Of a DNA stretch of 60,821 nucleotides, positions 8,449 to 38,746 are shown piece by piece. Within the stretch, counting starts at the first letter, position 1. The number at the start of each line of letters is the position of its first letter. A program made the translations under genes and the position numbers. The notes below the pieces were generated by a model that saw only the letters and a program-made list of their open reading frames with translations, was not told the origin of the DNA and made no database searches. The stretch spans positions 1 through 60,821 of IMG/VR virus record IMGVR_UViG_3300007643_000017; one strand, written 5' to 3'. This DNA comes from a virus.

Positions 8449-10074
8449 CTATTTCTCCGTGGTAGATAGCTGAGCGTCGTGGCTCAGATACATTGTAGTG
8501 TGGCCGAGAGCTTCCGCCAGAGCCAATTCGGCTCGTGCGCCTTTGCTCTCTGCGAAACCGGGAAGCATTACGATAGCATCAGCCTCGTGGCAAATCCACT
8601 CGCAATCTTCCCCGAGCGCATCGCGCAGACTGAACTCATGATCCTCTGCGGCCTTCGACTCGTCACCGTTGACATTGCCTTTGGAGATGTCCACGCCGTC
8701 GTGGCGTTCGACATCCCGGCGAGCCGGGTTGAATGGATTCCAGCCGCCCAAAATCATCCGCATTTCGGCGGCGTGGAATGCCGGGAAGTTGAACTCTTCG
8801 TAACCGCGCATCGGACCGGCGATATAAACACCGTCGCCTTCGAACTCTCCGGTGTTAGGTGCCAACAGTTTCAGCCACTGGACGTGCAACGGGTCCGTGT
8901 CAGAGTCCCAACCAAGGTCCATGCCTATCGAACTGCTGTCGTAGTGCTGTTCGATCAGTGCTACGCGTTTGGCTTCCAACTGAACGTTGTTGGCCGTGAT
9001 CCCAACCATGCTGCCGGGGTCAACTGCTCGGTACGAGTTCATCAACTGACCGGCCATGTGGAACTGGCCCCGCTCGTCAACGAGGTTGGCGACAACGTGC
9101 ATCACAAGAGACTCGACGTTCCAGATGCCGTCGTCGTTTCCGCAATTGAATTGGCGGGCGAGGCGAAGGAATTTTTTCTTCTGGCTCAGCATCACCGAAT
9201 CGTCAACAAGGAGTTCCCTTACCGACTTCGGCTCTGACGGGCGTTGACCCTTGTTAAACGCGAGGTCACGGACAAAAGAATTGAAGGTCCGCTGTATTCC
9301 TTCCGGCCACTTCTTCAACGTCTCTTGGGCCTTGTCTATCTCCGTCATAGCGTAGAAAACAATCTCTTCGGGGCTTTCGTTGGTCCAGCCGGAGAGAGGA
9401 ACCATGACCTCGTTCGGATGCAGGATCGGTGGGATCGAATCCCCTCGCCCGACATACCCGCCGCTGGCAAATCCCATGTTTGGGAAGAGACCGGACAGCA
9501 GTCCGTCAGTCTTGCCCTCTTGACGAGGCTTGAAGATCATTTCGACAGCTTCGTTGGCCAAGCGTTTCATGATGCGATCTTCGAGCGACGAGAGATCACA
9601 CGCGAAATTCTCTACGTCTGTCTCGCAATACGCACGGAGTTGTTCGTTGACCGGCTCGCCGAGGGCTTCGGCCATAACGTCAGCCGGATTCGATTTGTAG
9701 TCGCGATCCGGTTCGGCACGTCGGTCGTCACCGATGTTCCAATGGACAGAGTGCGAGAGTGCGACGGCGTTCCAGAGAATGTGGTCAGTGTGCATCAAGC
9801 CGCTGCCTTTCTGAATCGTGCCGTCTGGGAGATGCTTGTCGAGATCGCGATCCTCGCCGCGCATATACGCACGGAGATGGCGAAAGAGTGAACCCATGAT
9901 CTGACGTTGGCCCAGACCCTTCGACCAGTTCCACGGAGCGTACTTCTCAGCGCCGTGTTCAGCGACTCGAGCATAGGCTTCCATCATTTCTTCCATCGGA
10001 AGCAGATCGTATGGCAGGTTCGCCATCTTTTCGCGTTGTGCGCCGGTCTCGGATGCGGGATGTTCTTTGGTCAT
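8449..10074 (-). CDS. Three-part fusion: MazG-like dNTP pyrophosphohydrolase N-domain (DUF5664-type), unknown middle region, and DUF4406 (nucleoside 2-deoxyribosyltransferase-like) C-domain
   Basis: N-terminus: LPYDLLPMEEMMEAYARVAEHGAEKYAPWNWSKG...FRHLRAYMRGEDRD...HTDHILWNAVAL. C-terminus: VYIAGPMRGYEEFNFPAFHAAE...CEWICHEADAIVMLPGFAESKGARAELALAEALG. Confidence 0.65.
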   Translation of the reverse strand: MTKEHPASETGAQREKMANLPYDLLPMEEMMEAYARVAEHGAEKYAPWNWSKGLGQRQIMGSLFRHLRAYMRGEDRDLDKHLPDGTIQKGSGLMHTDHILWNAVALSHSVHWNIGDDRRAEPDRDYKSNPADVMAEALGEPVNEQLRAYCETDVENFACDLSSLEDRIMKRLANEAVEMIFKPRQEGKTDGLLSGLFPNMGFASGGYVGRGDSIPPILHPNEVMVPLSGWTNESPEEIVFYAMTEIDKAQETLKKWPEGIQRTFNSFVRDLAFNKGQRPSEPKSVRELLVDDSVMLSQKKKFLRLARQFNCGNDDGIWNVESLVMHVVANLVDERGQFHMAGQLMNSYRAVDPGSMVGITANNVQLEAKRVALIEQHYDSSSIGMDLGWDSDTDPLHVQWLKLLAPNTGEFEGDGVYIAGPMRGYEEFNFPAFHAAEMRMILGGWNPFNPARRDVERHDGVDISKGNVNGDESKAAEDHEFSLRDALGEDCEWICHEADAIVMLPGFAESKGARAELALAEALGHTTMYLSHDAQLSTTEK

Positions 10075-10719: not shown

Positions 10720-11598
10720 TTAATACGACTTGCCGCCATCCTTGATCCGGTTCTCCGGCTTGTGGTCTGCCCGAGTCGAATTGAACTTCAATTTGGCAGC
10801 CATGGCCAGACCGAAGTTGGCTTGCGCACGTGCTGCCATCGTGAAGATGTGCATCACAGCTTTCGCCAATGCGACTTCCACTTCGAGACGGTCGTACAGA
10901 ACAGAGTTGGTGATCTGCTTCCGGTCGCCTTCCATGGCTTCCGAAATCTTGTTCACGATAGCCATCACAGAGTCGTCAGCGTCAGCATCACGCTCGGCCA
11001 GAACCATCTCGTCAAGAAGCATCTGATAGTCGCGGCGAATCGCGACAATCGCACCGCCGATGTCCAGACCCATCCGACCGGCGAAGTCAAAGATGCGAAT
11101 CAATGTGTCCGCCATCTCAACGTCAAACCCGGAGAACTTCGGCAGCTTGTCGTCTTGGAGATTCAAACGAATCGCTTCATCTGCCTCAGATAGTTCCGAA
11201 ACTATCAGCATGAATTGCTCTCCGGTATTTCGACTGGGGAGAGGCTGCATAGTCGCGGGGTTGTGATACCAACCGCAAGCCCGAGACAGGCCGTGACAGG
11301 TCGTAGAGAGCAGCGCACACGCGTCTTCAATGTTGGACTCGGTTGTGGCGTCCATCGCAGGTGGATCAATCGTTAGATCGAGCGCCTGTCGAAGCTGCTG
11401 ACCAGCCAAGTTGATTAGTTCCATTGATAGCGGATACTCAGCGGGGACGAACAAATGGTTTTCACCGGCCTGCGGCAGAGCCTCAATCAGGTGTTCGTTG
11501 TTGGCGTAGTATTCCGGCAAGGGTGGCATGCCGAGAACAGTCTTGTCCGACATCTGGGCGTCGGTCCGGCCTTCGCCGATGGGGGTTACGTTAGTCAT
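10720..11598 (-). CDS. Tandem MazG-like nucleoside triphosphate pyrophosphohydrolase
   Basis: Two all-alpha NTP-PPase-like units: MLIVSELSEADEAIR...VEMADTLIRIFDFAGRMGLDIGGAI and VNKISEAMEGDR...ALAKAVMHIFTMAA...KLKFNSTRADHKPENRIKDGGKSY. Confidence 0.65.
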   Translation of the reverse strand: MTNVTPIGEGRTDAQMSDKTVLGMPPLPEYYANNEHLIEALPQAGENHLFVPAEYPLSMELINLAGQQLRQALDLTIDPPAMDATTESNIEDACALLSTTCHGLSRACGWYHNPATMQPLPSRNTGEQFMLIVSELSEADEAIRLNLQDDKLPKFSGFDVEMADTLIRIFDFAGRMGLDIGGAIVAIRRDYQMLLDEMVLAERDADADDSVMAIVNKISEAMEGDRKQITNSVLYDRLEVEVALAKAVMHIFTMAARAQANFGLAMAAKLKFNSTRADHKPENRIKDGGKSY

Positions 11599-13611: not shown

Positions 13612-14109
13612 CTACCCCTGCTTGAGGAAGTTGACAAGCTCTTCACCCTTGAGCGTGACGTGCAACGCCCTTGGTGACAGCAGGCGACGGTTGCGAAGGA
13701 CTTCCACGACTTGGCTGAACGCAGCCCCGCCACAGTCCCCGGTGAGGCCTTCGTGGATCGCGACGAGAGTGTCTTTCTCGTATCCGCTAAGGTTTGCCGC
13801 ATAGTGTTCTGGCTTGACGTTCTGCCAGTCTGGCGCATTCTCACCGACACCGGGGTCGTCATCAAGCAACCACACGTGCCGGACAGAGCCTTCGTCGTCT
13901 TTGACCTCGGTCCGATGCACCGGCAGTGAATCAAAATGCTCCGTTGGCATCTCGGTCGGCGGTCTGTCGTACATCACTGGCAGGATCATCGACCCCGGCG
14001 TACCGTGGGGCCGTGCGCCTCGGTAGTTGTAGACGTGTCGGATACCGGCAGATTGGAACTGAGGTCCCGGGAGATTGGAGGGCGCATAGATTTTCAGAGC
14101 GTTGCTCAT
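13612..14109 (-). CDS. Hypothetical protein (165 aa)
   Basis: ORF with an ATGA overlap to the downstream gene. No family recognised. Confidence 0.5.
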   Translation of the reverse strand: MSNALKIYAPSNLPGPQFQSAGIRHVYNYRGARPHGTPGSMILPVMYDRPPTEMPTEHFDSLPVHRTEVKDDEGSVRHVWLLDDDPGVGENAPDWQNVKPEHYAANLSGYEKDTLVAIHEGLTGDCGGAAFSQVVEVLRNRRLLSPRALHVTLKGEELVNFLKQG

Positions 14110-14771
14110 TTCTTGTTTCCTTGGTGGTGAGTGTAGATCAGTTTACGTTCCCAGTTGCGCTCGGTTTCGTCGGGCGTGAAGTACCCGAGATCGGCGCTGT
14201 ACCCGTGATCCAGTTGCTCAACCAAAGTCGCCACGTCACGCAGTTCGTTGCGCAGCAAAGTCATGTTGTTGGTCGAAGGATCTTTCGGATGGAATGAGAA
14301 CGGACCGTGCCGGAGAATCTTCTGACAGGCTTGCGCCACTTCGCTGGCCTCTTCGCTCAGCATTGTCCACAGTTCCTGTTCCCGTTTCGATAGACCCGTC
14401 ACAGGATCAATTTCATAACTGGTGATCGTCACCTCGGGTGTTTCCGGTACGTAGACCGAGAAGTGGTAGAGGAAATCTTCTGTGGGTACTTCTCTGCGCC
14501 TGTCTCGGTCCAAGGATGCGACGGTCAGGGCAGGGGACCGCATGTGTGGTTCGTCTCGCAGGCCCACGACTTGAACCATCTCGCCCTCGTCATAATTGGC
14601 ACTAGCTCTGTCGCAAATATACTTGATGCGCGGCGTGACACCTTGCGGCCAATCGGCGGCATTGCTCATGGAAGACATAGTGGTCAAACTTTCTGCGAGA
14701 GATTCTTCGCTGTCGTGAGTTGTAATCAGATGGGCGATAAAAGAAACGGGGAACATGTCGAGGCTTGCCAT
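14106..14771 (-). CDS. Protein with a C-terminal MazG-like (all-alpha NTP-PPase-like) domain
   Basis: The internal start MASLDMF at 14771 shares one nt with the upstream stop (TGATG). The C-terminus is ELWTMLSEEASEVAQACQKILRHG...LLRNELRDVATLVEQL. The Arg-rich 5' extension in the ORF track is rejected. Confidence 0.5.
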   Translation of the reverse strand: MASLDMFPVSFIAHLITTHDSEESLAESLTTMSSMSNAADWPQGVTPRIKYICDRASANYDEGEMVQVVGLRDEPHMRSPALTVASLDRDRRREVPTEDFLYHFSVYVPETPEVTITSYEIDPVTGLSKREQELWTMLSEEASEVAQACQKILRHGPFSFHPKDPSTNNMTLLRNELRDVATLVEQLDHGYSADLGYFTPDETERNWERKLIYTHHQGNKK

Positions 14772-15061
14772 CACTTGTACCTCACCCAAAAGTTTCCGGC
14801 GATGTGTTGCAGTTGCCCGTTGCCCACCACCTCGTCTTGAGTCCCCATAGGTCGATCCCTGCAATCGCCGGACGTGCCATCTTTCAGGATCGCCATTATT
14901 GCGATCTTGTCTTGGCTGAGCCAGCTTCCGTGAATTTTCCGGTACTCGAAAGACTCTACCATTGCGACGTGGACGAACTGGTGATCCTCGGCCATGCACC
15001 CTCGACAGTCTACGGTCATGACGATGTCGCCCACACGCATCTTTCGTTTGAAGAGTTTCAT
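14771..15061 (-). CDS. Hypothetical protein (96 aa)
   Basis: Start MKLFKRK at 15061 overlaps the upstream stop (ATGA). Confidence 0.5.
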   Translation of the reverse strand: MKLFKRKMRVGDIVMTVDCRGCMAEDHQFVHVAMVESFEYRKIHGSWLSQDKIAIMAILKDGTSGDCRDRPMGTQDEVVGNGQLQHIAGNFWVRYK

Positions 15062-15267
15062 AGCGGTTTCTTTCCATAAAGAGCTTCGCGATGGCTGGTG
15101 AGAGACACGTCGTAGGGTCCAACGCATGTGTTGCATTTGTACGGCTGATAGCCGGACGTTGATTTACAACCGGTGAGAATCAGCAGAGCGACAATTGCCA
15201 GAGCAAATGATACTCCGTAGATCGGGAACCACGGGCGGCGTTTCTTCGGGGGGTCGAAATGGGTCAT
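15058..15267 (-). CDS. Small lipoprotein (69 aa)
   Basis: FALAIVALLILTGC|K is a signal anchor plus LTGC lipobox. It is the first gene after the 15.3-kb control region. Confidence 0.6.
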   Translation of the reverse strand: MTHFDPPKKRRPWFPIYGVSFALAIVALLILTGCKSTSGYQPYKCNTCVGPYDVSLTSHREALYGKKPL

Positions 15268-22247: not shown

Positions 22248-22562
22248 TCATTTCTTGCCCTTCCGTTCCACTTTCCAGCCAACAAATTTGGGGTGTCGGG
22301 CGATCCGGTCTGGCCAACCCTTACCCATGAATGCGCCGGTTGCCGTGTTCACCCACTTGATTTTAGTCTTGCTCTTGTTCTCATGGTAGTTTGAGCATTT
22401 GAGGTAGTACACGACTCGCGTGTCTTTCATTCCGGTTGCCCGTTCCCGGTACGTTAGACGGTGGCGCGGATTCTTGTTGCGGAACGTCACGGCGATGATT
22501 GAACCGACCGGCAAATGGTGCGGCGAGTCGAAAGACTCGGTCTTGGTGTATTCGATTTTCAT
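22248..22562 (-). CDS. Hypothetical basic protein (104 aa; alternative starts at 22577 and 22616)
   Basis: SD ggaaagagcaatcATG at 22562. Lys-rich: KSKTKIKW...KVERKGKK. Confidence 0.5.
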   Translation of the reverse strand: MKIEYTKTESFDSPHHLPVGSIIAVTFRNKNPRHRLTYRERATGMKDTRVVYYLKCSNYHENKSKTKIKWVNTATGAFMGKGWPDRIARHPKFVGWKVERKGKK

Positions 22563-22619
22563 GATTGCTCTTTCCATGAGACGCGGCCAAACGCATCGGC
22601 CTTTCGGGGTTTCCATTGT

Positions 22620-22889
22620 TCAAAGCCTGTATGTTGGCGAGCGATAGACCATTGAAACGTCGTGACGCTCAACGCCTAGCAGTTTGAAATTGTCATAGCG
22701 GCGCTCAAGGGATTCAATCTCGTTCGCTTCCGCATAGTCGGCAATGCTGCTACCGGCGACAACGTAATGAGTTTGGCCTTTGACGTGCGATGATCCTACG
22801 GTCTCGACTTCGCCAGTTCCAGCAACAGATTGGCGAATGTCCAAATCGGAGTCGTAGGTGATTGCGATAATGACGTTATTGTCAGCCAT
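22620..22889 (-). CDS. Hypothetical protein (89 aa)
   Basis: ORF in the packed cluster. Confidence 0.5.
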   Translation of the reverse strand: MADNNVIIAITYDSDLDIRQSVAGTGEVETVGSSHVKGQTHYVVAGSSIADYAEANEIESLERRYDNFKLLGVERHDVSMVYRSPTYRL

Positions 22890-22892
22890 GTG

Positions 22893-23159
22893 TTAGCCCT
22901 TTCCGGGGATTGCGATTGGATGAACTACCAAGGACTCGGGCAATTGGGCTTTCAGTTGTCCGGGCTTTCCCTGATTCGGGTATTCGCGATATGAGGTGCG
23001 AACGGTACGCGGGGCGGCTTCGTATTCCGCCCGGGTCGAATCATCGATTCCATGGATTGCGACAACGCTATACCAGCGCCCGCAATGGAAGAATTTCCAA
23101 TCGTTTTCAAAGAAGAGTCCAACAGGTGATTCGAGCAAGTCTTTTAGGGTGTGGGCCAT
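22893..23159 (-). CDS. Hypothetical protein (88 aa)
   Basis: ORF in the packed cluster. Confidence 0.5.
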   Translation of the reverse strand: MAHTLKDLLESPVGLFFENDWKFFHCGRWYSVVAIHGIDDSTRAEYEAAPRTVRTSYREYPNQGKPGQLKAQLPESLVVHPIAIPGKG

Positions 23160-23172
23160 TTGGGGCGATCCT

Positions 23173-23271
23173 TTATGCGATGACGTTCAAGCAAGCGAGA
23201 TAAGACGAAACGAGGGTTGCCGTGGTGACGGTTGCCCCGAATGTCCATGCTGTGATTGCTGTGAGAGTCAT
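23173..23271 (-). CDS. Micro-ORF encoding a hydrophobic peptide (32 aa: MTLTAITAWTFGATVTTATLVSSYLACLNVIA)
   Basis: Hand translation. SD aaggaaaaacgcaaATG. Confidence 0.35.
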   Translation of the reverse strand: MTLTAITAWTFGATVTTATLVSSYLACLNVIA

Positions 23272-23325
23272 TTGCGTTTTTCCTTTTCTATGAGGCCAAT
23301 ATAGCGAGGCCGTCTTAACAAAAGG

Positions 23326-23526
23326 TTAATCCGCAGGCAGTTGTCCGTCGTTGGTTAGCAAGTGGTTAAAGAGCGCCACGGCGGCGGCGTCATCTGGGCA
23401 GGCGTCAATAGCGGCCTCTATGGGCAGGGCACATGAGCCAAGCCATATGAAGCCTAGTGTGCCGTCTGGTCTGGTCAGTTCAAGGGAGTCAGCAGTGCGT
23501 GTGACGCTATAGCCGGGGGCTGTCAT
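23326..23526 (-). CDS. Hypothetical protein (66 aa)
   Basis: First ORF-track gene after the 1.2-kb non-coding block. Confidence 0.5.
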   Translation of the reverse strand: MTAPGYSVTRTADSLELTRPDGTLGFIWLGSCALPIEAAIDACPDDAAAVALFNHLLTNDGQLPAD

Positions 23527-23538
23527 GAGGGGGTCTTT

Positions 23539-23658
23539 CTATAGAGGAAAAGCTAGAATCAACAGGCCACCTATGGCCACCAATGCGAGGGCAAGGGCGG
23601 TATAGTGGCGAGCGTAGCTGATACGGTGGGGTGCATGTAGGGGGGGCGTCTTATCCAT
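23539..23658 (-). CDS. Possible micro-ORF, 39 aa with a C-terminal TM (MDKTPPLHAPHRISYARHYTALALALVAIGGLLILAFPL)
   Basis: Hand translation. No convincing SD. Confidence 0.25.
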   Translation of the reverse strand: MDKTPPLHAPHRISYARHYTALALALVAIGGLLILAFPL

Positions 23659-23715
23659 GGGTAGGCCATACCGTACCGGGGCGTGTGTGGCAACACATCG
23701 AATCATAGAATCGGA

Positions 23716-24027
23716 TTGGTGGTTAATGGGTGCTTATGGGTGCTGATATGGGTGAGGCATAGCCGGTCAGCCTATAGCGCATGGCTTGGCACGGTGTAGG
23801 GCAGGGGGGATTCCATAGCAATGGATTGAATCGAATCCATCTAATGCAACCGGCTGCCGTGTGGTGTGGTGGTGCGTGGGTGCGGTGGTGCGTGTGTTGT
23901 GCAGTGTGCATGCAGGCTGCTAGCAGAGTGCGTGTGTAGGACATTATTCCTACTAGGATTATCTTCCTATTGATGCGTTGTCCTGTTGTGGGTGCGTGGG
24001 TGTGTGGTGTGGTAGTGTGCGTGGGTG
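23716..24027. repeat. G+T-rich repeat block: ATGGGTG x3 (23716, 23726, 23738) and GTGCGTGGGTG x3 (23872, 23992, 24017)
   Basis: Read directly. There is strong G/T versus C/A strand asymmetry, and only a low-complexity His/Thr/Pro shadow ORF. Confidence 0.8.
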
Positions 24028-24356
24028 CTGTAGAGAGGGCGCATGGGCGGGGCCTCAGCATGTGGGCTCAACACATGGTCGCTTTGGGTCCTTCCCCCAT
24101 TTTTCGCGTGTCGGGGGGTGCGCGGAGCCCCGGACTCTCGCACTTTTGGGATTTATTTCCTATTTTTACAAAATTTTGTCGCTCTACAGGCGTCATGTAG
24201 GAACATATTCCTCATGCGGTACACAGGAATGCCCGACTGCCGGGGCAAATCCACCAGAATCGTCATATCGCGCAAATCGACCTTGAGGGTAGACCGAAAT
24301 TGGGTCAAGTCCTTGAAATTGCAGGATTTTGTGCCGTTTTCAATCCGGTCGAGAGA

Positions 24357-24613
24357 CTGGAATACAGACTGGAAGATTGCTTAACTTCCTGAAAACACAC
24401 ACTAAAATTCCTGTTTTATTCCACCTTCCACTAAATTCTATAAACAATATAGAGAGTAGTAGTGTAAAAATATGGTGTTTGAGTCATGGTGGATTCTGAG
24501 TCTGGGGTTCCAGAGTTGAAAATGGTCCGAGAGTGGAAGATTTGCTGACTCGCCTTGTGGAATAAGGCCTCACAGCGTCTTCCAGTCGTATTCCAGACTG
24601 GAAGACTGGAATA
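24357..24613. repeat. Iteron-like array: 8 copies of [CG]TGGAA[GT]A in four dyads, flanking an AT-rich core (24381-24475)
   Basis: Plus-strand copies at 24357, 24369, 24533, 24557, 24598 and 24606. Minus-strand copies at 24578-85 and 24589-96. Partial copies near 24424 and 24505. Confidence 0.8.
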
Positions 24614-24714
24614 AAATCCCGGTGCGAATCAGCGATTTTTGGAGTGAAAGCCTGAGAGCAGGTGTTGTAGAAACGTGCTGTAGAAGAGACGCGTAGAGGA
24701 CGTGTTCTCAGGAC

Positions 24715-27507
24715 TTAGATCAGGTCGTCGTGTTTGGGCATGTCTGGGACATCGGCCTCAATGTCCGGCGCGTTCGGGCTGTCGATCTCGGCGAAGCCTT
24801 GCTTCAACTCCCGAGGCGACCAGTTTCCGAAGGTCGATACAAGCTCTTTCTGGGAGCCGACGCCATGGAAGTGCTTCTTCTCCTGCGTCCGGTTCCAGTG
24901 GTCGGCCTGATCGGCAGCAGCATTGATCTGGTTGAGTGTCATCATCTCCGGCGAGCCGATCCGACCCATGACCTGAGTGAAGACCTCTTTGCCGAATGAC
25001 CGAGTGCGATAGACCAGACGGTCGTCGTCATCGTCCGGGAAGCTCGTATCTTCCCCACGGTAGGCCCAACCGATCTGGTGCAATGGAACGGGCACTGAGG
25101 CCCACTCGTCAAGCTCACCAGCCAGAACCTGAGCCGGGGTCTCGACCTCGACCAGTTCTATCAGGCGCTCATGCTCTTCAATCGACTCTGGATCAGTCAG
25201 GTCAAGCGGAAGGTCTTCGTCAGGCCCCCACTCTTCGCGCAGGGCTCTATAAGCATGCACGGCCTCTCCGACGATCTGCGGATACTCTTTTTTGAACGCC
25301 GGGTTGTCGATACGGTCTCGCTTGGTTTTGGTCACAAGCATTGGCCAATAGCGACGTGCGCCGGACGGGTCTTTGAGATATTCGCCGTCGTTGATCGTAC
25401 CGATGCAGATCGACTGCCGTGGGTACTCCATGGTGTTCTTTGCATAGGCCACACGAACCTGCTCTTCACTGCGAGACAGGAACGCCTTCATGGCGCTCGA
25501 TTCGGACTTGTTGTAGGCCTTCATCTCGCCAAGCTCGGCAATGATTTTCCCCTGCAAGCCTTCGACCACTTTGGCGTTGTCGCCGAGGTCCACGTTGAGG
25601 TCGGTATGGAACTCTTTGAATCCCATTATCTCGGTGAAGGTCGATTTGCCCTCTCCGCCTTGGGGTGCTTGGAGAACCATCATATTGTGGAACTTGAGCC
25701 CCGGTTCGAATTGCCGACCGACGAGAGCGATCATTGCCTTCGTGAAGGCCTCTGCGCTGTACGCGGACTGCGGCAGGCCGAGGTATCTGTGAGCTACGGT
25801 ATGCAGCCGTTCGACTCCATCCCACTCGTCGGCGAACCGGGAGAACATGTCTCTGATCGGATGGAAGGGGCGCTCAAGGGCCGACAGCATGACGCCGGAC
25901 TTAATGTCCCGGTCGGTCACGTTGATGTTGTAGCCGCCCTTCTCGGAGAGCATGGCCCGGATCGTGTCGTCTAGTCGGTCGGTCAGGGTGTCGCCGCCAC
26001 GTTTCGGTTTCCGGCAGACGAAATCCGCCAGATCGGGAAGCTGCGTCCTGATCGTCGTCTTGAGAACCGGCACGGCCAGAAATTCGTTGTACCCAAACTT
26101 GCGTTTCAGGCGCTTGTCGTTGCGGATGATCTTGCGGACATTCGAGAGGGTGGACTTGAGTCCTTCCGTCTTATCGAAGTCGAGATTGCCGAACCAGTCG
26201 GGGTCATATTCGATGCCGTCATCTGCGGCCTTGGTCTTCTTCTTTTTCTTCTTGTCAACTTTTTTGCTACTCTCCTGAGTCGACGAATCTCCTGCGTCGA
26301 TTTCGTCGTCGTAGAGATCATTGATGTCGTCCGTCTGCACGTCTTCGCTGTCGTCCTCTTCCACGTCTATGCTGTCGCGGTCGTGTTCGAAGTCGCCCTC
26401 TTCCACATCGTCTTCTGTGAAGTCGAGAATGGCGGCGTACTTCTCGGCGTTCGCTTGCGCACGGTATCCCGGGTCTTTCTTCGCGAACTCCATCATCTTT
26501 GTCCACGACGGTCTCTTCGCCATGGGTGTGTCGTCGTCTTCGTCCTCGGTGTTGAATTTATAGAGGCGCACGAGGTCCCACGCATTCACGTTCTGCTCGG
26601 CTATCGGATCAGATGTGTGGTTGCTGTAGATGAATGTATCGTTATCATAAATGACCATGCCCGAAGAGCCGGTTGATCCGACAGGCGTATAGCGAGGTTC
26701 ACCCCCGGCTTCGCCATCGTCCGCTGGCACAATCTCGTCAGCCAGAAAAGTCTCGATTGCGAGGGAGATCGAATAAGCCCGACAGAAGATGCCGACAGGC
26801 CCTTCCTTCTCAAGCGGGTTCTCCGCTTTCTGCGATGTGTCACGAACGTTCTTCTCGCGCTCGGGGTTGAACGGCAGGTCGGAGAAGTCCGTCCAGTCGC
26901 CGACGAACTCGTCGAGGATTTTGTTCGGGTCGAGAGCCTTGCCTTTGTTCGCATGGAACTTGAACGCACCGTCCTTCGAAGCGGTCGGCTTGAACATCAT
27001 CTGCGCCATCCGGTGTGATACCGGGTCGATGGCTGTCATGTCTGGATTGATGTAGCTCGATACGATGCGCGAGAGCGGACCATGTGTGTGCCGGTCAACG
27101 CCCTCGGAAAGCAGGATGACGATTCTAAATTTCGGATGATCTGGATTGTGCGAGCGACTCGTCTGGATGAAATACTCATAGTCGTGAAGCCAGTTGCCGG
27201 ACTTCTGCTGCAACTCTTCGAATAGCTCTTCGGCGTTCTCGTCAACGTCGATAGTCAGGATGTCGCGGAAGCCAACGTCTTCCTTTTTCCGGCTGCCACC
27301 CTTACACGGCGCTGCGAAGAAGAAGCCATCGGCCTGCTTCAATTCCAGCTTCTGCGCCAGCGGCATTTTGGAATAGAACTTGTATGTCTCGGACGAACGC
27401 ACTGGACGCCGGAGCATTTCTTGGAAGTCGCGCCATGACTTCTGTTTGTTCGTCACTTTGCCGAGGTTCTTACGCCCTTCGGAGTAACGGATAATTTGAT
27501 CGTGCAT
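24715..27507 (-). CDS. DNA primase fused to a VirE-type P-loop helicase/NTPase
   Basis: The N-terminus is primase-like (DILTIDVDENAEE). An acidic linker and a KKKKKT stretch follow. The C-terminus has the VirE-like Walker A QAPQGGEGKSTFTEIMG. It ends ...KHDDLI. Confidence 0.8.
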   Translation of the reverse strand: MHDQIIRYSEGRKNLGKVTNKQKSWRDFQEMLRRPVRSSETYKFYSKMPLAQKLELKQADGFFFAAPCKGGSRKKEDVGFRDILTIDVDENAEELFEELQQKSGNWLHDYEYFIQTSRSHNPDHPKFRIVILLSEGVDRHTHGPLSRIVSSYINPDMTAIDPVSHRMAQMMFKPTASKDGAFKFHANKGKALDPNKILDEFVGDWTDFSDLPFNPEREKNVRDTSQKAENPLEKEGPVGIFCRAYSISLAIETFLADEIVPADDGEAGGEPRYTPVGSTGSSGMVIYDNDTFIYSNHTSDPIAEQNVNAWDLVRLYKFNTEDEDDDTPMAKRPSWTKMMEFAKKDPGYRAQANAEKYAAILDFTEDDVEEGDFEHDRDSIDVEEDDSEDVQTDDINDLYDDEIDAGDSSTQESSKKVDKKKKKKTKAADDGIEYDPDWFGNLDFDKTEGLKSTLSNVRKIIRNDKRLKRKFGYNEFLAVPVLKTTIRTQLPDLADFVCRKPKRGGDTLTDRLDDTIRAMLSEKGGYNINVTDRDIKSGVMLSALERPFHPIRDMFSRFADEWDGVERLHTVAHRYLGLPQSAYSAEAFTKAMIALVGRQFEPGLKFHNMMVLQAPQGGEGKSTFTEIMGFKEFHTDLNVDLGDNAKVVEGLQGKIIAELGEMKAYNKSESSAMKAFLSRSEEQVRVAYAKNTMEYPRQSICIGTINDGEYLKDPSGARRYWPMLVTKTKRDRIDNPAFKKEYPQIVGEAVHAYRALREEWGPDEDLPLDLTDPESIEEHERLIELVEVETPAQVLAGELDEWASVPVPLHQIGWAYRGEDTSFPDDDDDRLVYRTRSFGKEVFTQVMGRIGSPEMMTLNQINAAADQADHWNRTQEKKHFHGVGSQKELVSTFGNWSPRELKQGFAEIDSPNAPDIEADVPDMPKHDDLI

Positions 27508-27524: not shown

Positions 27525-27806
27525 TCAGTAGAAATATTTGGAGAGTTCTTCGAGCGTAACGCGGCCCTCAGAAATCTCGACAACTTGCTTTGCCCTCTTC
27601 GGTGTGATGTGTTTGGTCTTCGCCCATTTGTGGACCGACCAGCGGCTTAGTCCGAGCAACCCGGCCAGCACTGTGTTCGAAACGATGCCTTTCTTGTTGC
27701 CTTTGACGGGCACCCATTTGTCTTTCACTTGAACGCTCGGCGGGCATGCTTTGAGAAGCAGTTGGTGCAACTCGCCAACGTCCTTTGTGGTTCGTGTTTC
27801 AGTCAT
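27525..27806 (-). CDS. Cro/YdaS-like HTH regulator (93 aa)
   Basis: Start MTETRTT at 27806 with SD ggagacaccccATG. HTH-like VLAGLLGLSRWSVHKWAK. It is divergent from the replication operon. Confidence 0.6.
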   Translation of the reverse strand: MTETRTTKDVGELHQLLLKACPPSVQVKDKWVPVKGNKKGIVSNTVLAGLLGLSRWSVHKWAKTKHITPKRAKQVVEISEGRVTLEELSKYFY

Positions 27807-27937
27807 GGGGTGTCTCCGATATTCAAATCTTGAGTGGTCTATACGCTGACAAAATGATGTTGACAAGCATTTTTTATTCCGGCATACGACCTGCGACCAT
27901 ACAGGTCACATCAACCTGACACAAGGAAGGAATCCAC
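27807..27937. promoter_or_regulatory. Divergent early control region
   Basis: TTGACA at 27860-65, with only a weak -10 (CATACG after 17 nt). ACCTG/CAGGT half-sites at 27889-93, 27902-06 and 27914-18. Genes diverge on both sides. Confidence 0.4.
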
Positions 27938-33507: not shown

Positions 33508-35008
33508 AAAACTTCCGCTGTTCGATCTCGAAAGCCGTGAACTGATCTTCGGCCCGCCAGACGAGATACTGACATATGAGGATTTCGAACCATATCAAAG
33601 ATGGATGTCCAAGCTGTGCATCAATCTCAAGTACGTTTACCTCGGAGCCGACATGGGCCTCGGGAAGACGGCGACTGCGTTGAAGGCAGCCAGCGTCTGG
33701 TTGAAGAAGGGCAAGTGTCGAAAGATTCTGATTATCGCCCCGTTGAATGTTGCGAACCACACTTGGCCTGACGAAATCGCCAAGTGGGACTTTGCACGGC
33801 CAATGAAATACTCAGTCATCACAGGCACCGAAGAACAGCGGCTGTGGGCGCTCAATCGAGATGCCGAGGTCTACATAATCAATCGCGAGAACGTGGTCTG
33901 GCTATACAAGCATCTCAATCCGCACGAGACTCCAGAAGAGTTGGAAAACCCGAACTGGCCGTTCGACGGATTGATCTACGACGAAGCCTCTCGGCTCAAG
34001 GGCGGAGCGAAGAAGACAAAACAGACTGTCAGAAAAGATGGTACTTTATCTGCCAAAAATGTCTCGGAGTTCGGAGCCCTGCGGCGCATACGACCGAAGT
34101 TCAAACGCATCGTGCAGTTGTCGGGGACTCCAGCCCCGAACGGATTGATCGATTTGTGGGGACCGTTCTATTTGCTCGATAAAGGTTCCCGGCTCGGGTC
34201 CTCGAAAGACGCGTTCTTGAAGCGGTGGTTCAGCTACGACAAATGGACCTACAAGTGGGAACCCCACGAGCATGCGAAGAAGGATATTCTCGACCGGCTC
34301 AAAGACATTTTCTTCACGCTCCGGTCTGAGGATTATTTGACGTTGCCGGAATTGAAGATCGTTGATCGGTGGGTTCATCTGACGGAAAAACAAAAACGAC
34401 AATACGACGATTTCAAGGCAGAGATGGTTTTGGAAGAGCATGATATTGAGGCCGTCAACAACGGCGTTCTCTGCAACAAGCTGCTGCAATTCGCCAACGG
34501 ACACGTCTATAACGAAGAACAGGAAGCGATCAAAATCCACGACCAGAAACTGAAAGAGCTTGAGAGCATCGTGGAAGAATCCGCAGGGAAACCGATCCTG
34601 TTGGCGTACTCGTATGCCTTCGACCGAGACGCGATCAAGAAGAAATTTCCATGGGCTCGCATCTTCGGAGAGAAAGAATCTGACATGCGTGATTGGAATG
34701 AGGGCAAGATCAGAATGCTGATTACTCACCCGGCCTCAGCAGGGCACGGCTTGAATTTTCAGTTCGGCAGCAATATAGCTGTTTGGTATGGCCTCAACTG
34801 GAGTCTCGAATTGTACCAACAGTTCATCAAGAGACTCCACCGTCGTGGCCAAAAGGAAGGAACTGTTTTCATGTATCGTATTCTCGCCCGGGGAACATTT
34901 GACGAGCACCAAGTCGAAACGCTCAAACAAAAAGGTGTAACCCAAGACGACATCATTGACGCTGGCACTGCTGAGATCGGAGAGACCCCATGGCCGATAG
35001 CAGCATAG
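33491..35008 (+). CDS. SNF2-family helicase (probable TTG start overlapping the VRR-NUC 3' end)
   Basis: FEPYQ, GADMGLGKT (motif I), YDEASRLK (II), LSGTPAPNG (III), RLHRRGQ (VI). The first ATG lies after the Q motif. The TTG at 33491 has SD gagagg. Confidence 0.8.
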   Translation: MALNRKKLPLFDLESRELIFGPPDEILTYEDFEPYQRWMSKLCINLKYVYLGADMGLGKTATALKAASVWLKKGKCRKILIIAPLNVANHTWPDEIAKWDFARPMKYSVITGTEEQRLWALNRDAEVYIINRENVVWLYKHLNPHETPEELENPNWPFDGLIYDEASRLKGGAKKTKQTVRKDGTLSAKNVSEFGALRRIRPKFKRIVQLSGTPAPNGLIDLWGPFYLLDKGSRLGSSKDAFLKRWFSYDKWTYKWEPHEHAKKDILDRLKDIFFTLRSEDYLTLPELKIVDRWVHLTEKQKRQYDDFKAEMVLEEHDIEAVNNGVLCNKLLQFANGHVYNEEQEAIKIHDQKLKELESIVEESAGKPILLAYSYAFDRDAIKKKFPWARIFGEKESDMRDWNEGKIRMLITHPASAGHGLNFQFGSNIAVWYGLNWSLELYQQFIKRLHRRGQKEGTVFMYRILARGTFDEHQVETLKQKGVTQDDIIDAGTAEIGETPWPIAA

Positions 35009-35637
35009 ACGACGCACTCACTGCCGTAACTGCGGCCAACCGATTTGCCAAAGGTGGCAACGCGGACGCCGGTCGAGTCGTCGAAGGTGTTACCCTGACG
35101 TGGCTCTCCCAAGTGTTCGAAATGACACCTTACGAATTGAAGAAGAAGCTGCGCAATTGCCCGACTAAACCGGCCCGAGACGGTCGCACTGGCGCATACT
35201 ACGATTTGCCAACGGCTGCCGCGTATCTCGTGACACCCCGGATCGACGTTGACGAGTACATGAAAAACGTCAAGCCGACTGACATGCCCGCGCATCTCCA
35301 AGACCAGTATTGGTCAGCGATGAACAAAAAGCAGAAGTGGGAAGAGGCGGCTGGCCACTTGTGGCGCAGCGAAAAAGTTCTCGCCGTCTTTGGTGATGTC
35401 TTCCAGTTGGTCAAGGGATCGATTCAGTTGTGGCCTGACGCGGTCGAACGTGCAGTCGGGATGAACGCCGAACAGAAGCGCACTCTGCGAGCCCAGTGTG
35501 ACGGCCTGCAAAAAGACATCCACACTCGCCTGCTGCAAATGCCTGACGATCAGCACACCGGCCCGCAGCTTGATGAATTTGAAGCGCCGTCCTCAGAGAT
35601 CGGCCCGGAAGCGACAGTTCACGATGACCTTATTTAA
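34990..35637 (+). CDS. Putative small terminase subunit (Nu1/DUF1441-like)
   Basis: It sits immediately upstream of, and overlaps, the large terminase gene. The N-terminus is HTH-like (LTWLSQVFEMTPYELKKKL). Ends ...VHDDLI. Confidence 0.5.
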   Translation: MADSSIDDALTAVTAANRFAKGGNADAGRVVEGVTLTWLSQVFEMTPYELKKKLRNCPTKPARDGRTGAYYDLPTAAAYLVTPRIDVDEYMKNVKPTDMPAHLQDQYWSAMNKKQKWEEAAGHLWRSEKVLAVFGDVFQLVKGSIQLWPDAVERAVGMNAEQKRTLRAQCDGLQKDIHTRLLQMPDDQHTGPQLDEFEAPSSEIGPEATVHDDLI

Positions 35638-38600
35638 CTCTCTCGAACAAATGGTGGTTCAGACTGCCGAGGGGGTTCGTCCCCCCGAACGACTGACCGT
35701 CTCACAGGCCTCGGCCAAGTATCGGTATCTCAATTCTCCCGGAGCGTATGTCGGACCGTGGCTGAATGAGACCACGCCATATCTCGAAGAGCCCATGGAC
35801 TCTCTGAACGATGACGTGAAAACCGGCATGGCTTTCGTCGGACCGGCGCAGTGCGGCAAAGCTCTGGGTCTCGATACGCGTATCCCAACGCCTTCTGGAT
35901 GGACTACGATGGGGGAAATATCCGTTGGAGATTGGCTTATCGGTGGTGACGGCGCACCTTGTCGTGTCACTGGAGTCACCCCCACACAGTACGGCAGAGA
36001 TTGCTATCGAATGGTTTTTGGCAACGGACAAGTGGTTGTGGCCGCCGCGGATCACAACTGGGTAACTAGAGAATACCGATCTACACAAAACCAAAAATGG
36101 ACGGTACAAACGACGCTTGATATCCTCAACAACCGCAATAAACAGAATGTTCCCTGCGGCAAACAAGTCCGACTACCCGAAACCGACTTACCCGTAGACC
36201 CATACGTCTTTGGTGCTTGGTTGGGAGACGGTCACAACGCAGGCGCTCGCATATATACCCACCGGGACGATGCCTCTCAAATGCGAGAGAACTTGCGTAT
36301 GGAGACCCGGTACCACGAGGACAAGAAAGGTCTCGGCGTGATCGCTCTTTCCGACGAGAGACACAACCCCGGTCGTGCGGGCGGGGCACATGGGGTTTCA
36401 GCAGGACTTCGAAGCATGAATTTGTCGCAGGGACAAAACAAATACATACCGACAGTCTACCTCCGATCCAGTGTCGAACAAAGGATGGAGCTTCTGCGCG
36501 GGCTTTTGGATACGGACGGCTCGGCAGATAAAAGGGGCAGGATTGAGTTCACAAGTTCACAGCCGTCGTTGGCCGAGGGATTTGCAGAACTTTTATTATC
36601 TCTCGGATATAGTTTTTCTCGCGGCTCTCGCCAGAAATCCCATCGTTTCAGCTTCTCCCCTAAACGAGACGAAATTCTTTTCAGGCTCCCCAGAAAGCAA
36701 GAACGACTGCATGATTGCGTTCGGAGACCGATTCGGCAAGAACAAACCCCAATCAGCGCCATCGAACCACACGAAAGCGTCCCGGTACGCTGCATAACGG
36801 TAGATTCTCCACAGAGAACGTATTTGTTTGGTGAAAAGTGGGTGGTGACGCACAATACAGACATGTTCTTGAACTGGCTAACGTACACCGTGGTTTCAGA
36901 CCCGGTCGATATGGTTCTGTTCGAGAAGACACAAGCCACGTCTCGCGACTTCTCCATTCGTCGTGTGGACCGGCTGCACGACTTCACAGAAGAGGTCGGC
37001 AATCGGTTGGTGCAGGGTCCTAAGAACGACAATACCTTCGACAAAAAATATACCAACGGGATGCTGTTGACTCTCTCGTGGCCAACGAAAAACACGCTGT
37101 CCGGTAAGCCGGTCCCCCGCCTCTGGCTATCAGATTACGACCGTATGGATCAGGACGTTGAGGGTGACGGGTCGCCGTTCGATCTGGCCCGCAAACGTAT
37201 GACGACATTCCGCCAGTTCGGTATGACCGCCGCAGAGAGTTCTCCATCGTTCCCAATCGAGAACGCTCGGTGGGTCCGCAAGTCCCGGCACGAAGCTCCG
37301 CCAACGCAGGGCATCATTTCGATCTACAACCGAGGCGACCGCCGTCTCTGGTATTGGCGCTGTGTCCAATGTCACAACGCGTTCGAGCCGTCCTTCAAAT
37401 TGATGAAGTGGCCCAAGTCGGAAGACCGGATGGAGTCTGCTGAGGCCGCGTACATCGAATGTCCGTCGTGCAATGCGAAGTACCATCAGGAAGAGCAAGA
37501 CAATCCCGGCAAGCACGAGATGAACCGCGAGCATGCCCGGTGGGTCAAAGACGGGATGATCTGGACGCCGGACAACACGCTGGTCGGCGAGCCGTTCCGG
37601 TCGGACATTTCTTCGTTCTGGCTGAAAGGTCCCGCAGCGACATTCGCAGATTTCAAAACACTGGTGAACAACTATCTGGCAGCCGAAGAAGACTACGAAA
37701 AAACCGGCTCCGAAGACTCTCTCAAAACGACAGTCAACGTCGATCAGGGCGAGCCGTACATCCCGAAAGCGCAAGCCAATGCTCGTCTCCCAGAGATGAT
37801 TAAAGCGACTGCGCGAGACTACGGCCTGCGGATGGTCCCGATGGGTGTCCGGTTCTTGATCGCCACAATCGACTTGCAGAAGAACAGATTTGAAGTACAG
37901 GTCCACGGCGTCGGAACAGATGAACACGGCCTGCCGGATTTTTGGGTTATCGACAGGTTCAAAATCCAAAAGTCTCGCCGGTATGATGACGACGGAGATC
38001 GCGCATGGGTGAACCTCGGAGCGCACCCGGAAGACTGGAAGCAACTGACTGACGAAGTCTTGATGAAAACGTATCCTCTGCTCGACGGTTCCGGCAGGCA
38101 CATGTCGATCAAGCACACGGTATCTGACTCCGCTGGCTCTGAGAACTTTACGTCAAACGCTTATGACTTTGTCCGCTGGCTTCGGCAAGACCCGGAACAC
38201 TGGTCTGAGGATCAAGACGACACGTATGTCTGGAAAGAAGGTCTCGCCGGTCGGTTCAGTCTGCTTCGCGGAGCGTCTACAAAGAACGGTCCTCGAGTCC
38301 GGTTGACGTATCCTGACTCCGAACGCAAAGACCGGAACGCCGGAGCCCGGGGAGAAATCCCGGTCTATGAAATCAATACGCAGAATTTGAAGGACAACAT
38401 CGACAAGATGCTGGACCGTAAAGTTCCCGGGGGCAAGGTCAATTTCCCCGACTGGTTGGACGACAATTTCTTCACGGAATTGACAGTCGAGGTCAAAGAC
38501 CCGGTCAAGGGCTGGCACAACCCAAAGGGATTCCGCAACGAAAGTTGGGACCTTCTCGTCTACGCAAAAGCCGCAACGCTCATGGCCCAAGTCAATGTAG

Positions 38601-38746
38601 ACAACATAAACTGGACCAATCCCCCCGGATGGGCTAAGCCGTGGGACGAAAATGATCTTGTATTTCATCCCGAAATGGATGATAAACCGTTTGAAGCCAA
38701 AAAACCGCGAGCCAATCTGGCGGCACTGGCAGAAAAATTAGCCTGA
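35624..38746 (+). CDS. terL: Large terminase subunit, lambda GpA family, interrupted by an intein
   Basis: The Walker A motif GPAQCGK|T is split by 332 codons. Downstream are GpA-like Cys pairs (CVQCHNAF, CPSCNAKY). It is followed by gpW and lambda-type portal genes. Confidence 0.85.
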   Translation: MTLFNSLEQMVVQTAEGVRPPERLTVSQASAKYRYLNSPGAYVGPWLNETTPYLEEPMDSLNDDVKTGMAFVGPAQCGKALGLDTRIPTPSGWTTMGEISVGDWLIGGDGAPCRVTGVTPTQYGRDCYRMVFGNGQVVVAAADHNWVTREYRSTQNQKWTVQTTLDILNNRNKQNVPCGKQVRLPETDLPVDPYVFGAWLGDGHNAGARIYTHRDDASQMRENLRMETRYHEDKKGLGVIALSDERHNPGRAGGAHGVSAGLRSMNLSQGQNKYIPTVYLRSSVEQRMELLRGLLDTDGSADKRGRIEFTSSQPSLAEGFAELLLSLGYSFSRGSRQKSHRFSFSPKRDEILFRLPRKQERLHDCVRRPIRQEQTPISAIEPHESVPVRCITVDSPQRTYLFGEKWVVTHNTDMFLNWLTYTVVSDPVDMVLFEKTQATSRDFSIRRVDRLHDFTEEVGNRLVQGPKNDNTFDKKYTNGMLLTLSWPTKNTLSGKPVPRLWLSDYDRMDQDVEGDGSPFDLARKRMTTFRQFGMTAAESSPSFPIENARWVRKSRHEAPPTQGIISIYNRGDRRLWYWRCVQCHNAFEPSFKLMKWPKSEDRMESAEAAYIECPSCNAKYHQEEQDNPGKHEMNREHARWVKDGMIWTPDNTLVGEPFRSDISSFWLKGPAATFADFKTLVNNYLAAEEDYEKTGSEDSLKTTVNVDQGEPYIPKAQANARLPEMIKATARDYGLRMVPMGVRFLIATIDLQKNRFEVQVHGVGTDEHGLPDFWVIDRFKIQKSRRYDDDGDRAWVNLGAHPEDWKQLTDEVLMKTYPLLDGSGRHMSIKHTVSDSAGSENFTSNAYDFVRWLRQDPEHWSEDQDDTYVWKEGLAGRFSLLRGASTKNGPRVRLTYPDSERKDRNAGARGEIPVYEINTQNLKDNIDKMLDRKVPGGKVNFPDWLDDNFFTELTVEVKDPVKGWHNPKGFRNESWDLLVYAKAATLMAQVNVDNINWTNPPGWAKPWDENDLVFHPEMDDKPFEAKKPRANLAALAEKLA
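35861..36856 (+). mobile_element. Intein (332 aa) with a LAGLIDADG homing-endonuclease domain; class-3-type signature
   Basis: It starts ALGLDT and ends VVTHN|T. Block B is AADHNW. The two dodecapeptide motifs are FGAWLGDGH and LLRGLLDTDGS. Block F is VRCITVD. Excision restores GPAQCGKT. Confidence 0.85.

Follow-up and report, generated by a model that had tools for sequence, protein, structure and literature searches.

The stretch of DNA analysed here, below called the window, is the whole of the IMG/VR virus record IMGVR_UViG_3300007643_000017 (60,821 nt). Judged by its gene content, it is a distant Chi-like (Casjensviridae-type) cos siphovirus. The element under study is a block of short repeats (iterons) at positions 24354–24614, a putative replication origin that lies just downstream of a primase-helicase gene transcribed from the minus strand. 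An earlier note on this DNA had proposed the repeats as an origin and had not noticed that the whole gap at 23707–24714 (~1 kb), in which they are found, is non-coding. The features of the locus are as follows:

24117–24128, plus strand: cos-type cohesive-end sequence GGTGCGCGGAGC, the predicted left end of the virion DNA, outside the putative origin and 225 bp from the first iteron.
24354–24377, plus strand: cos-proximal iteron pair AGACTGGAATAC and AGACTGGAAGAT, with a spacing of 12 bp and oriented towards the core; exact octamer and 11-mer matches (18.6 and 17.7 bits).
24381–24480, no strand: AT-rich core, the presumed DNA unwinding region, which is the GC minimum and the least stable DNA.
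24416–24431, minus strand: exact inverted copy GTGGAATA at 24417–24424 (reading 'ttattccac') and, adjoining it, the 7/8 copy GTGGAAG at 24425–24431, both inside the AT-rich stretch.
24530–24565, plus strand: G-variant copies AGAGTGGAAGAT (24530–24541) and CTTGTGGAATAA (24554–24565) on the primase-proximal flank (16.2 and 11.2 bits).
24577–24614, both strands: dense cluster of four overlapping copies, with 24577–24588 and 24588–24599 on the minus strand and 24595–24606 and 24603–24614 on the plus strand (16.4–18.5 bits).
24715–27507, minus strand: primase-helicase of the Pri-Rep type, 930 aa, the presumed initiator (Pfam VapE-like_dom, E = 2.6e-56; PHROG 256, E = 1e-168).
24835–25017, minus strand: predicted winged helix of the same protein (residues 831–891), the presumed iteron-reading module; strand, two helices and a beta-hairpin wing in the AlphaFold2 (AF2) model.

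The octamer [CG]TGGAA[GT]A was found 23 times on the two strands of the window, compared with 6.7 ± 2.5 times (maximum 14) in dinucleotide-preserving shuffles of it. Nine of the 23 exact copies, accompanied by degenerate ones, fall in the block, in a span of 257 bp (24357–24613). The true repeat unit is longer than eight bases and reads AGACTGGAAKA. With at most one mismatch, it matched the window 11 times against 1.4 expected, and seven of these matches fall at 24354–24613. A 12-nt weight matrix made from the copies reached 16 bits nowhere outside 24354–24614, and scanning the window with it revealed no second repeat cluster, the hits beyond the block being isolated and scoring at most 14.8 bits. 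The iterons stand in both orientations on the sides of the core (plus at 24354–24377, 24530–24565 and 24595–24614; minus at 24416–24431 and 24577–24599), and the dense cluster holds a perfect 11-bp inverted repeat (24577–24587/24596–24606). Altogether, the nine exact octamers and at least one 7/8 copy sit 101–361 bp beyond the primase stop codon.

The earlier note had counted eight octamers in the block. All eight are in place, but the exact number is nine, since the minus-strand copy at 24417–24424, which had been taken for a partial one, is exact. The distance to the primase gene, claimed as about 100 bp, is 101 bp as measured from the block end at 24614 to the stop codon at 24715. The block was also correctly described as lacking coding potential: the only open reading frames (ORFs) are of 56 aa or less, have alternative starts and match nothing in PHROG or Pfam, and the FQSVFQS reading comes from an artefact frame on the minus strand through 24374–24354. 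An Rfam scan of 22500–25500 with E values up to 1 returned nothing, a tRNA/tmRNA search found none, and the block contains no terminator-like site. Promoter and terminator counts were at or below chance, with a single sigma-70-like promoter match (24381–24408, in the core) against 1.6 expected.

The core at 24381–24480 has 29% GC; the whole window has 54.9%, and the 100-bp stretch that comes second has 38%. In stability, too, the core ranks lowest of all 100-bp stretches in the 60.8 kb, with a nearest-neighbour free energy of –116 kcal/mol against a mean of –148 kcal/mol (standard deviation 5.7). The AT-rich sequence reported between the repeats is thus confirmed as an extreme, being the window minimum in both GC content and stability. 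The matches to the DnaA box TTATCCACA (up to one mismatch) that come closest to the block are at 14363 and 36805, with none less than 9 kb away, and the number of such boxes over the window is at chance level.

The product of the adjoining gene was then compared with proteins of known structure. Its domain order is an N-terminal primase domain resembling archaeo-eukaryotic primases (AEP), a disordered acidic/basic linker (residues ~370–428), a VapE-type superfamily 3 (SF3) helicase (residues ~435–760) and a C-terminal domain. In a phmmer search against the PDB, residues 435–810 matched 7pds_A (E = 6.5e-38) in a colinear alignment that continued weakly on to the C-terminus. The entry, annotated as 'Similar to D. 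nodosus vapE', is the Rep hexamer of the Staphylococcus aureus pathogenicity island (SaPI) SaPI1 on DNA (PriRep1 with dsDNA). An AF2 model made with 38 homologues had a mean predicted local distance difference test (pLDDT) score of 84.3 and showed an N-terminal alpha/beta domain, the linker at 370–428, the helicase core, a helical bundle (773–816) and a winged helix (831–891). The elements assigned by DSSP to the latter in the model are strand 831–838, helices 839–846 and 855–867, and strands 871–880 and 884–891, mostly with pLDDT of 86–91. Foldseek placed 7pds first for this model (E = 1.7e-28), and the template modelling (TM) score normalised by the target was 0.75–0.79, which means that the whole of Rep1 is covered. 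The matches that followed were the AEP primase-helicases African swine fever virus PrimPol, NrS-1 and poxvirus E5/D5. The earlier note had not noticed that the primase is homologous, in sequence and predicted fold, to an origin-binding initiator already characterised, and this homology supports the origin reading. The winged-helix region is the most divergent structured part of the protein with respect to its closest phage homologue. Upstream of the primase gene lies a gene for a Cro/YdaS-like helix-turn-helix (HTH) protein (27525–27866), and an HTH gene occupies that position in all relatives.

The best phage relative, locus L002, encodes this homologue (49% identical) in a syntenic arrangement. 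A non-coding gap lies at the same position, of ~860 bp to the first called gene and ~1.1 kb to the first gene on the same strand. The repeats in it (GCGGACAA and AGCGGACAA) are unrelated to those of the window and form two 49-nt perfectly inverted blocks with extra copies around an AT-rich core; they are followed by the conserved cos block and then by a CA-rich tract. Other lineages follow the same plan, each with its own 7–9-bp repeat: GTGACAGG in L006, GTTACCAA in L007, CTGGCCAG in L008, GGTTAAGG in L009, GGTTGGAAC in L010 and GGTTACA in L011. In Chi, the repeats GGTTACAA occupy positions 225–505 around an AT-rich core at ~270–400. A fixed architecture filled with lineage-specific sequence is what sites for a co-evolving DNA-binding protein look like.

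The 49-nt perfect inverted repeat of L002 is located at 8974–9022/9236–9284, and the Logan contig L003, a second assembly of the same phage, breaks exactly there.

To survey the whole family, we collected 157 loci that encode primase homologues and extend 400 bp or more beyond the stop codon, drawn from genome and metagenome scans and from the loci already described. For each locus, copies of the commonest 7-mer that was not of low complexity were counted, with the strands pooled, in three stretches of 600 bp: directly downstream of the stop codon, directly upstream of the start codon and inside the gene. Downstream of the gene, a 7-mer was present in at least five copies in 110 of the 157 loci (mean 6.2), compared with 1 of 148 upstream and 2 of 157 intragenic controls (Mann–Whitney p of about 1e-34); the loci are phylogenetically non-independent and both controls are mostly coding. 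The copies lay in both orientations in 107 of the 110 repeat-bearing loci. The largest gap between copies had a median length of 112 bp and a GC content of 32.5% against 52.1% for the gene, being lower than the gene in 109 of 110. Since only 11 of the survey loci carry the Chi-type cos block and about 100 have the repeats without it, the repeats travel with the primase gene. In the S. aureus phage phiSauS-IPLA35, for example, about ten copies of TGATGCAACA fill a 340-bp gap after the primase-helicase gene, in mid-genome among replication genes. The earlier note had named conservation of the octamers beside orthologous primase genes as a check. In most of the 157 loci it is the architecture that is kept, while the repeat sequence itself is lineage-specific, and we regard the check as passed in this form.

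Many iterons of Firmicutes and Bacteroidetes have a G-N3-ACA-like form (GGTAACA, GTAAACA, GTTGACA, GTAGACA and GTTTACA, e.g., in L022, L025, L044, L048, L053, L074 and L130). These forms suggest that docking follows a shared geometry in which the central triplet varies.

The Chi-group phages of Salmonella offered a closer comparison. Their gene for the small terminase subunit (TerS) is 95–100% identical in about 100 records, and their iteron regions fall into distinct classes. For this comparison, we used four genomes (Chi, Siskin, FSL SP-124 and FSL SP-030), all with TerS genes at least 96.5% identical to that of Chi. The iteron GGTTACAA is common to Chi, Siskin and SP-124, whereas SP-030 has GGTAACAG at the corresponding positions. 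The primases of SP-030 and SP-124 are 98% identical in the primase domain and 92% in the helicase domain but only 66–70% in the C-terminal region. In the region aligned to the winged helix, Chi is 81% identical to SP-124, which has the same iteron, and 64% to SP-030. Meanwhile, the HTH gene gp1 beside the repeats exists in unrelated versions in Chi, Siskin and SP-124, and the iteron is unchanged. In these four genomes, the iteron thus tracks the C-terminal domain of the primase and not TerS or gp1, a pattern that is coherent but not a statistic. In a broader comparison of 109 homologues, the greatest excess divergence in close pairs was found at residues 764–797 and 867–889, which both belong to the C-terminal domain. 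L002 is 61% identical to the window in TerS, 43% in the HTH protein and 49% in the primase as a whole, whose similarity is lowest at ~830–900; this is consistent with the Chi-group result and not decisive.

The closest characterised counterparts of this arrangement are the SaPI origins. SaPI Rep proteins recognise their iterons via a winged helix in the C-terminal domain (PMC9371898). Their experimentally defined origins contain 6–12 iterons immediately downstream of rep. An AT-rich region lies about the middle, and each of its sides has two or more iterons, which point in opposite directions; the Rep proteins bind and melt the DNA without ATP and without a loader (PMC9371898). At the level of sequence, every element of this description is matched by the window. 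The SaPI initiators (SaPI1, SaPIbov1 and SaPI5; PDB 7PDS and 7OLA) are self-loading VapE/SF3 helicases with a C-terminal winged helix, and the presumed initiator of the window is a homologue predicted to be built in the same way; in SaPI5, the helicase is likewise fused to a primase. In SaPIs and the window alike, the initiator gene is directly followed by short iterons that flank an AT-rich centre in opposite orientations, and DnaA boxes are lacking. They differ in that SaPIs are Gram-positive satellites, whereas the window is a lytic-type 60-kb Chi-like siphovirus with a probable alphaproteobacterial host. Its iterons are of 8–11 bp against 5–6 bp in SaPIs, its putative origin starts 101 bp after the stop codon and 225 bp from the cos end, and its primase is only ~25% identical to Rep1.

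Because the product of the adjoining gene is homologous to SaPI Rep in sequence and predicted fold, and the SaPI origin has this layout and position, we conclude that 24354–24614 is very probably a phage replication origin of the SaPI type. The replication-origin interpretation made in the earlier note is thereby supported by the Rep-homologous initiator, the conserved layout, the co-variation of iteron and C-terminal domain in the Chi group and the most meltable core in the window.

In such an origin, the Pri-Rep protein would bind the iterons on both flanks of the core after injection of the DNA and joining of its cos ends, with the C-terminal winged helix, to judge by homology, reading the AGACTGGAA(G/T)A iterons. 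Hexamers of the SF3 type would then assemble on both flanks and melt the core without a host initiator or loader. Loaded facing outwards, the helicase hexamers would move outwards, the AEP-type N-terminal domain would make primers, and the family-A polymerase and Enc34-type single-stranded DNA-binding protein (SSB) of the phage, encoded a few kb from the block, would extend them. Binding, melting and bidirectional loading are what we infer from the analogy with the Rep proteins.

Several results weigh against the origin reading. Cumulative GC skew, proposed in the earlier note as a check, gave no inflection or polarity switch at the site, and we judged it uninformative; the only sharp local jump of GC skew in the window is caused by a GT-rich tract at 23860–24030. 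Among 109 homologues, a shared iteron 6-mer was only weakly linked to extra C-terminal similarity in close pairs, at p ~0.02, which is nominal because the homologue pairs are not independent, and it was not linked in distant pairs. The weakness of this signal may be due to the G-N3-ACA-like form shared by many iterons, with specificity resting on few residues. A relative of the window phage close enough for the co-variation test on its own iteron was not found among phage records or in IMG/VR. The literature search returned no paper linking Chi-like phages with iterons or an origin and no experimental origin evidence for these phages; the GenBank records of Chi, Siskin, SP-030 and SP-124 carry no annotation of the left-end repeat region. 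Finally, in the Chi-like loci with a cos block, the repeats always have cos on one side and the primase gene on the other, and in L008, where ~1.7 kb of small ORFs separate the repeats from the primase gene, they stay beside cos. For this reason, position alone does not decide against a role in packaging.

The cos site itself had not been noticed in the earlier note. Its sequence GGTGCGCGGAGC is identical at 11 of 12 positions to the overhang of phage Chi, GGTGCGCAGAGC, a 12-nt 5' cohesive end determined experimentally (PMC4342425); a cohesive end of the Chi type was also confirmed for Siskin (PMC6498227). The cos block is kept in 11 related loci, and two independent metagenomic contigs, L007 (59,996 nt) and L096, stop one base past it. 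Since the cos ends lie at 24117–24128, the contig is a circular permutation of the cos genome, and the iteron block lies 225 bp inward from the predicted left end of the DNA in the virion.

With a cos site 225 bp from the iterons, a packaging function had to be tested. The repeats could form a cosB-like site inside the left cohesive end, at which TerS (DUF1441/PHROG 141, 34990–35637) would bind and the core would serve as a bend site, comparable to the R and IHF sites by cosN of lambda. The lambda cosB combines inverted protein sites with a bend and resembles the block in that repeated protein sites in both orientations, separated by an AT-rich segment, adjoin the point at which cos is cleaved. 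The block lies on the side of cos that is packaged first, and its orientation matches the left end of Chi. We give a cosB-like function some weight because the repeats stay beside cos in every Chi-like locus with a cos block, L008 included, and still consider it improbable. The same layout occurs in about 100 loci of primase homologues that have no Chi-type cos block, such as that of the S. aureus phage. In the Chi group, the iteron differs between phages whose TerS genes are at least 96.5% identical, and it does so in step with the C-terminal domain of the primase. The window and L002 have unrelated repeats even though their TerS proteins are 61% identical and similar in a putative recognition stretch. 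Unlike the gpNu1 R sites with their IHF site, the repeats go with the primase gene and the C-terminal domain that it encodes rather than with TerS, and about ten of them spread over 260 bp, starting 225 bp from cos, compared with three over ~120 bp in lambda. The 225-bp segment between cos and the iterons also holds motifs conserved between the window and L002, which are better candidates for cosB.

We find it very improbable that the block is an operator array by which a regulator (the Cro/YdaS-like HTH protein or a gp1-like one) would act on early or middle transcription where the primase gene meets the arm of early small genes. An HTH gene does lie upstream of the primase in all relatives, Chi and its kin carry the second one, gp1, beside the repeats, and the core contains one sigma-70-like match. 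However, this match is not above the chance count, the window has no equivalent of gp1 between the repeats and the primase gene, and gp1 is swapped among Chi, Siskin and SP-124 without a change of iteron. Moreover, about ten sites in both orientations around a 100-bp unstable core are not the layout of an operator, and this layout follows primase homologues across phyla whatever regulators neighbour them. Hardly any weight falls on the remaining explanations, namely a parS-like centromere, an attP with arm-type sites, a structured RNA or neutral repeat debris. They can draw on the clustering of repeats in a 1-kb non-coding region and on inverted repeats that could fold in RNA. Against them, the genes that were scanned include none for an integrase, ParA or ParB, the searches for an Rfam family, a tRNA and a terminator in the block were negative, as described above, and chance is ruled out by an architecture kept with sequence turnover across more than 100 loci.

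As a kind of element, the SaPI-type origin that we favour is already known: it is the Rep-iteron origin of SaPIs and other phage-inducible chromosomal islands (PICIs), with ori/alpha of P4 as an analogue. The alpha protein of P4 unites in one polypeptide a primase, an SF3 helicase and a C-terminal domain that binds the origin by reading short repeated octamers, and the presumed initiator of the window is predicted to be of similar build. The primase domain of alpha differs in type from the AEP-like one predicted for the window, and P4 needs a second cluster, crr, several kb from ori, which the window lacks. Iteron plasmids (RK2, pPS10, F and P1) likewise have several initiator sites beside an AT-rich unwinding element. 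Their origins have direct repeats of 17–22 bp, readers of the RepA family, DnaA boxes and host DnaB/DnaC loading, whereas the repeats of the window are of 8–11 bp in both orientations without a DnaA box, and the initiator would itself be the helicase. The left ends of Chi and other Casjensviridae are arranged as in the window, with cos, ~220 bp, iterons around an AT-rich core, the primase gene on the opposite strand and terminase genes more than 10 kb away, in addition to the 11/12 identity of the overhang. Chi differs in its iteron (GGTTACAA against CTGGAAKA), in the extra HTH gene gp1 between the repeats and the primase gene, and in a primase without most of the N-terminal similarity, to which only 167 of the window's first 350 residues align.

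Further conserved sequences surround cos. All relatives have a second conserved block, GTCGCTTTGGGTCCTTCC (on the other strand, GGAAGGACCC..AGCGAC), in the flank at 24078–24095, ~25 bp to the right-end side of cos, which may be a cosQ-like element. Palindromes of the TAGGA(A)nATnTTCCTA type flank cos in the window (23935–23972, 24149–24165 and 24196–24212) and in L002 (8822–8842 and 9416–9436) and are thus common to both, although the iterons differ. They are candidate sites for the terminase (cosB) or a regulator. The GT-rich tract at 23860–24030, just inside the predicted right genome end, is strongly strand-biased (CA-rich on the primase-sense strand) and contains repeated GTGCGTGGGTG units. 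Its position is kept in L002 (9590–9900), L006 (8300–8630) and L011 (5160–5300), and Chi has GATATACGCGGCGTGCGT repeats instead. Early promoters or an end protection resembling recombination hotspots are guesses at its role.

The assignment of the window to the Chi-like phages was based on the following genes. The terminase genes are the TerS gene and a gpA-type large terminase (TerL) gene interrupted by a LAGLIDADG domain; the structural genes include a lambda-family portal and an E-type capsid protein. Other genes encode a DUF2800 nuclease, the Enc34-type SSB, the family-A polymerase, an SNF2 helicase and the VapE primase beside the small HTH gene. A Megablast of the region against 50,697 phage records gave no match, nor did a peptide-pattern scan of IMG/VR with the primase. 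By TerL, the nearest cultured phages are Synechococcus virus S-ESS1, Ruegeria phage DSS3-P1 and similar marine Chi-like phages; S-ESS1 is the closest of them, and it was left out of the comparisons because its record starts elsewhere than at the Chi-type cos block. The closest non-phage primases are found in integrative islands of alphaproteobacteria, which makes this group the likely host group.

The large terminase (35498–38746, plus strand) has 1082 aa, with LAGLIDADG_3 at residues 328–372 ahead of the gpA ATPase domain. Relatives align to it in two pieces with ~65% coverage, which suggests an intein or a homing-endonuclease insertion. Elsewhere in the window, a cluster of nucleotide-pool genes, all on the minus strand (8449–10074, 10720–11598 and 14106–15122), encodes a dATP/dGTP diphosphohydrolase N-domain fused to a nucleoside 2-deoxyribosyltransferase-like domain and two more pyrophosphatase-like proteins, and an N6/N4 methylase gene is located nearby (6711–7439). 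Together, they hint at DNA base modification or editing of the deoxynucleotide pool. No PurZ-like gene was present among the ORFs scanned.

Two integrative islands of alphaproteobacterial type carry related primase genes. The island L004 of Pseudahrensia aquimaris (JBHTJV010000002.1, 3179–9100), located beside tRNA-Leu(CAA), encodes an integrase, a 351-aa ORF, AlpA and a primase 45% identical to that of the window, and it has GGAACG-type repeats around an AT-rich stretch and the Chi-type cos block GGGGCTCAGCGCACCCCCCG. From its content, one would take it for an alphaproteobacterial satellite of Chi-like phages, similar to P4 or the PICIs. A second island, L001 (3983–8094), also beside tRNA-Leu(CAA), has a primase 87% identical to that of the window and truncated at residue 659; it was rejected for origin comparison, as the primase gene is truncated and no iterons follow it. 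Primase, origin and cos might travel together between Chi-like phages and integrative satellites as one compact and portable 'replicate-and-package' cassette, an idea that we put forward as a speculation and think rather unlikely. If it were true, alphaproteobacteria would harbour P4/PICI-like satellites that parasitise Chi-like phages, and the conserved closeness of origin and cos (75–340 bp) might couple initiation to genome entry or packaging.

While our understanding of origins in general is unchanged by the SaPI-type reading of the block, it provides a concrete candidate origin for a large, little-studied phage group that includes the type phage Chi. It also offers a rule for annotation, namely that VapE/Pri-Rep genes tend to be followed closely by an AT-rich core with iterons around it that are specific to the lineage, which held in 110 of the 157 loci (Proteobacteria, Firmicutes and Bacteroidetes). 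The origin repeats of this family can break or mis-join assemblies. The pairs of iteron and C-terminal domain are a natural set in which to study how these initiators read DNA, and they could aid the design of orthogonal replicons and phage engineering.

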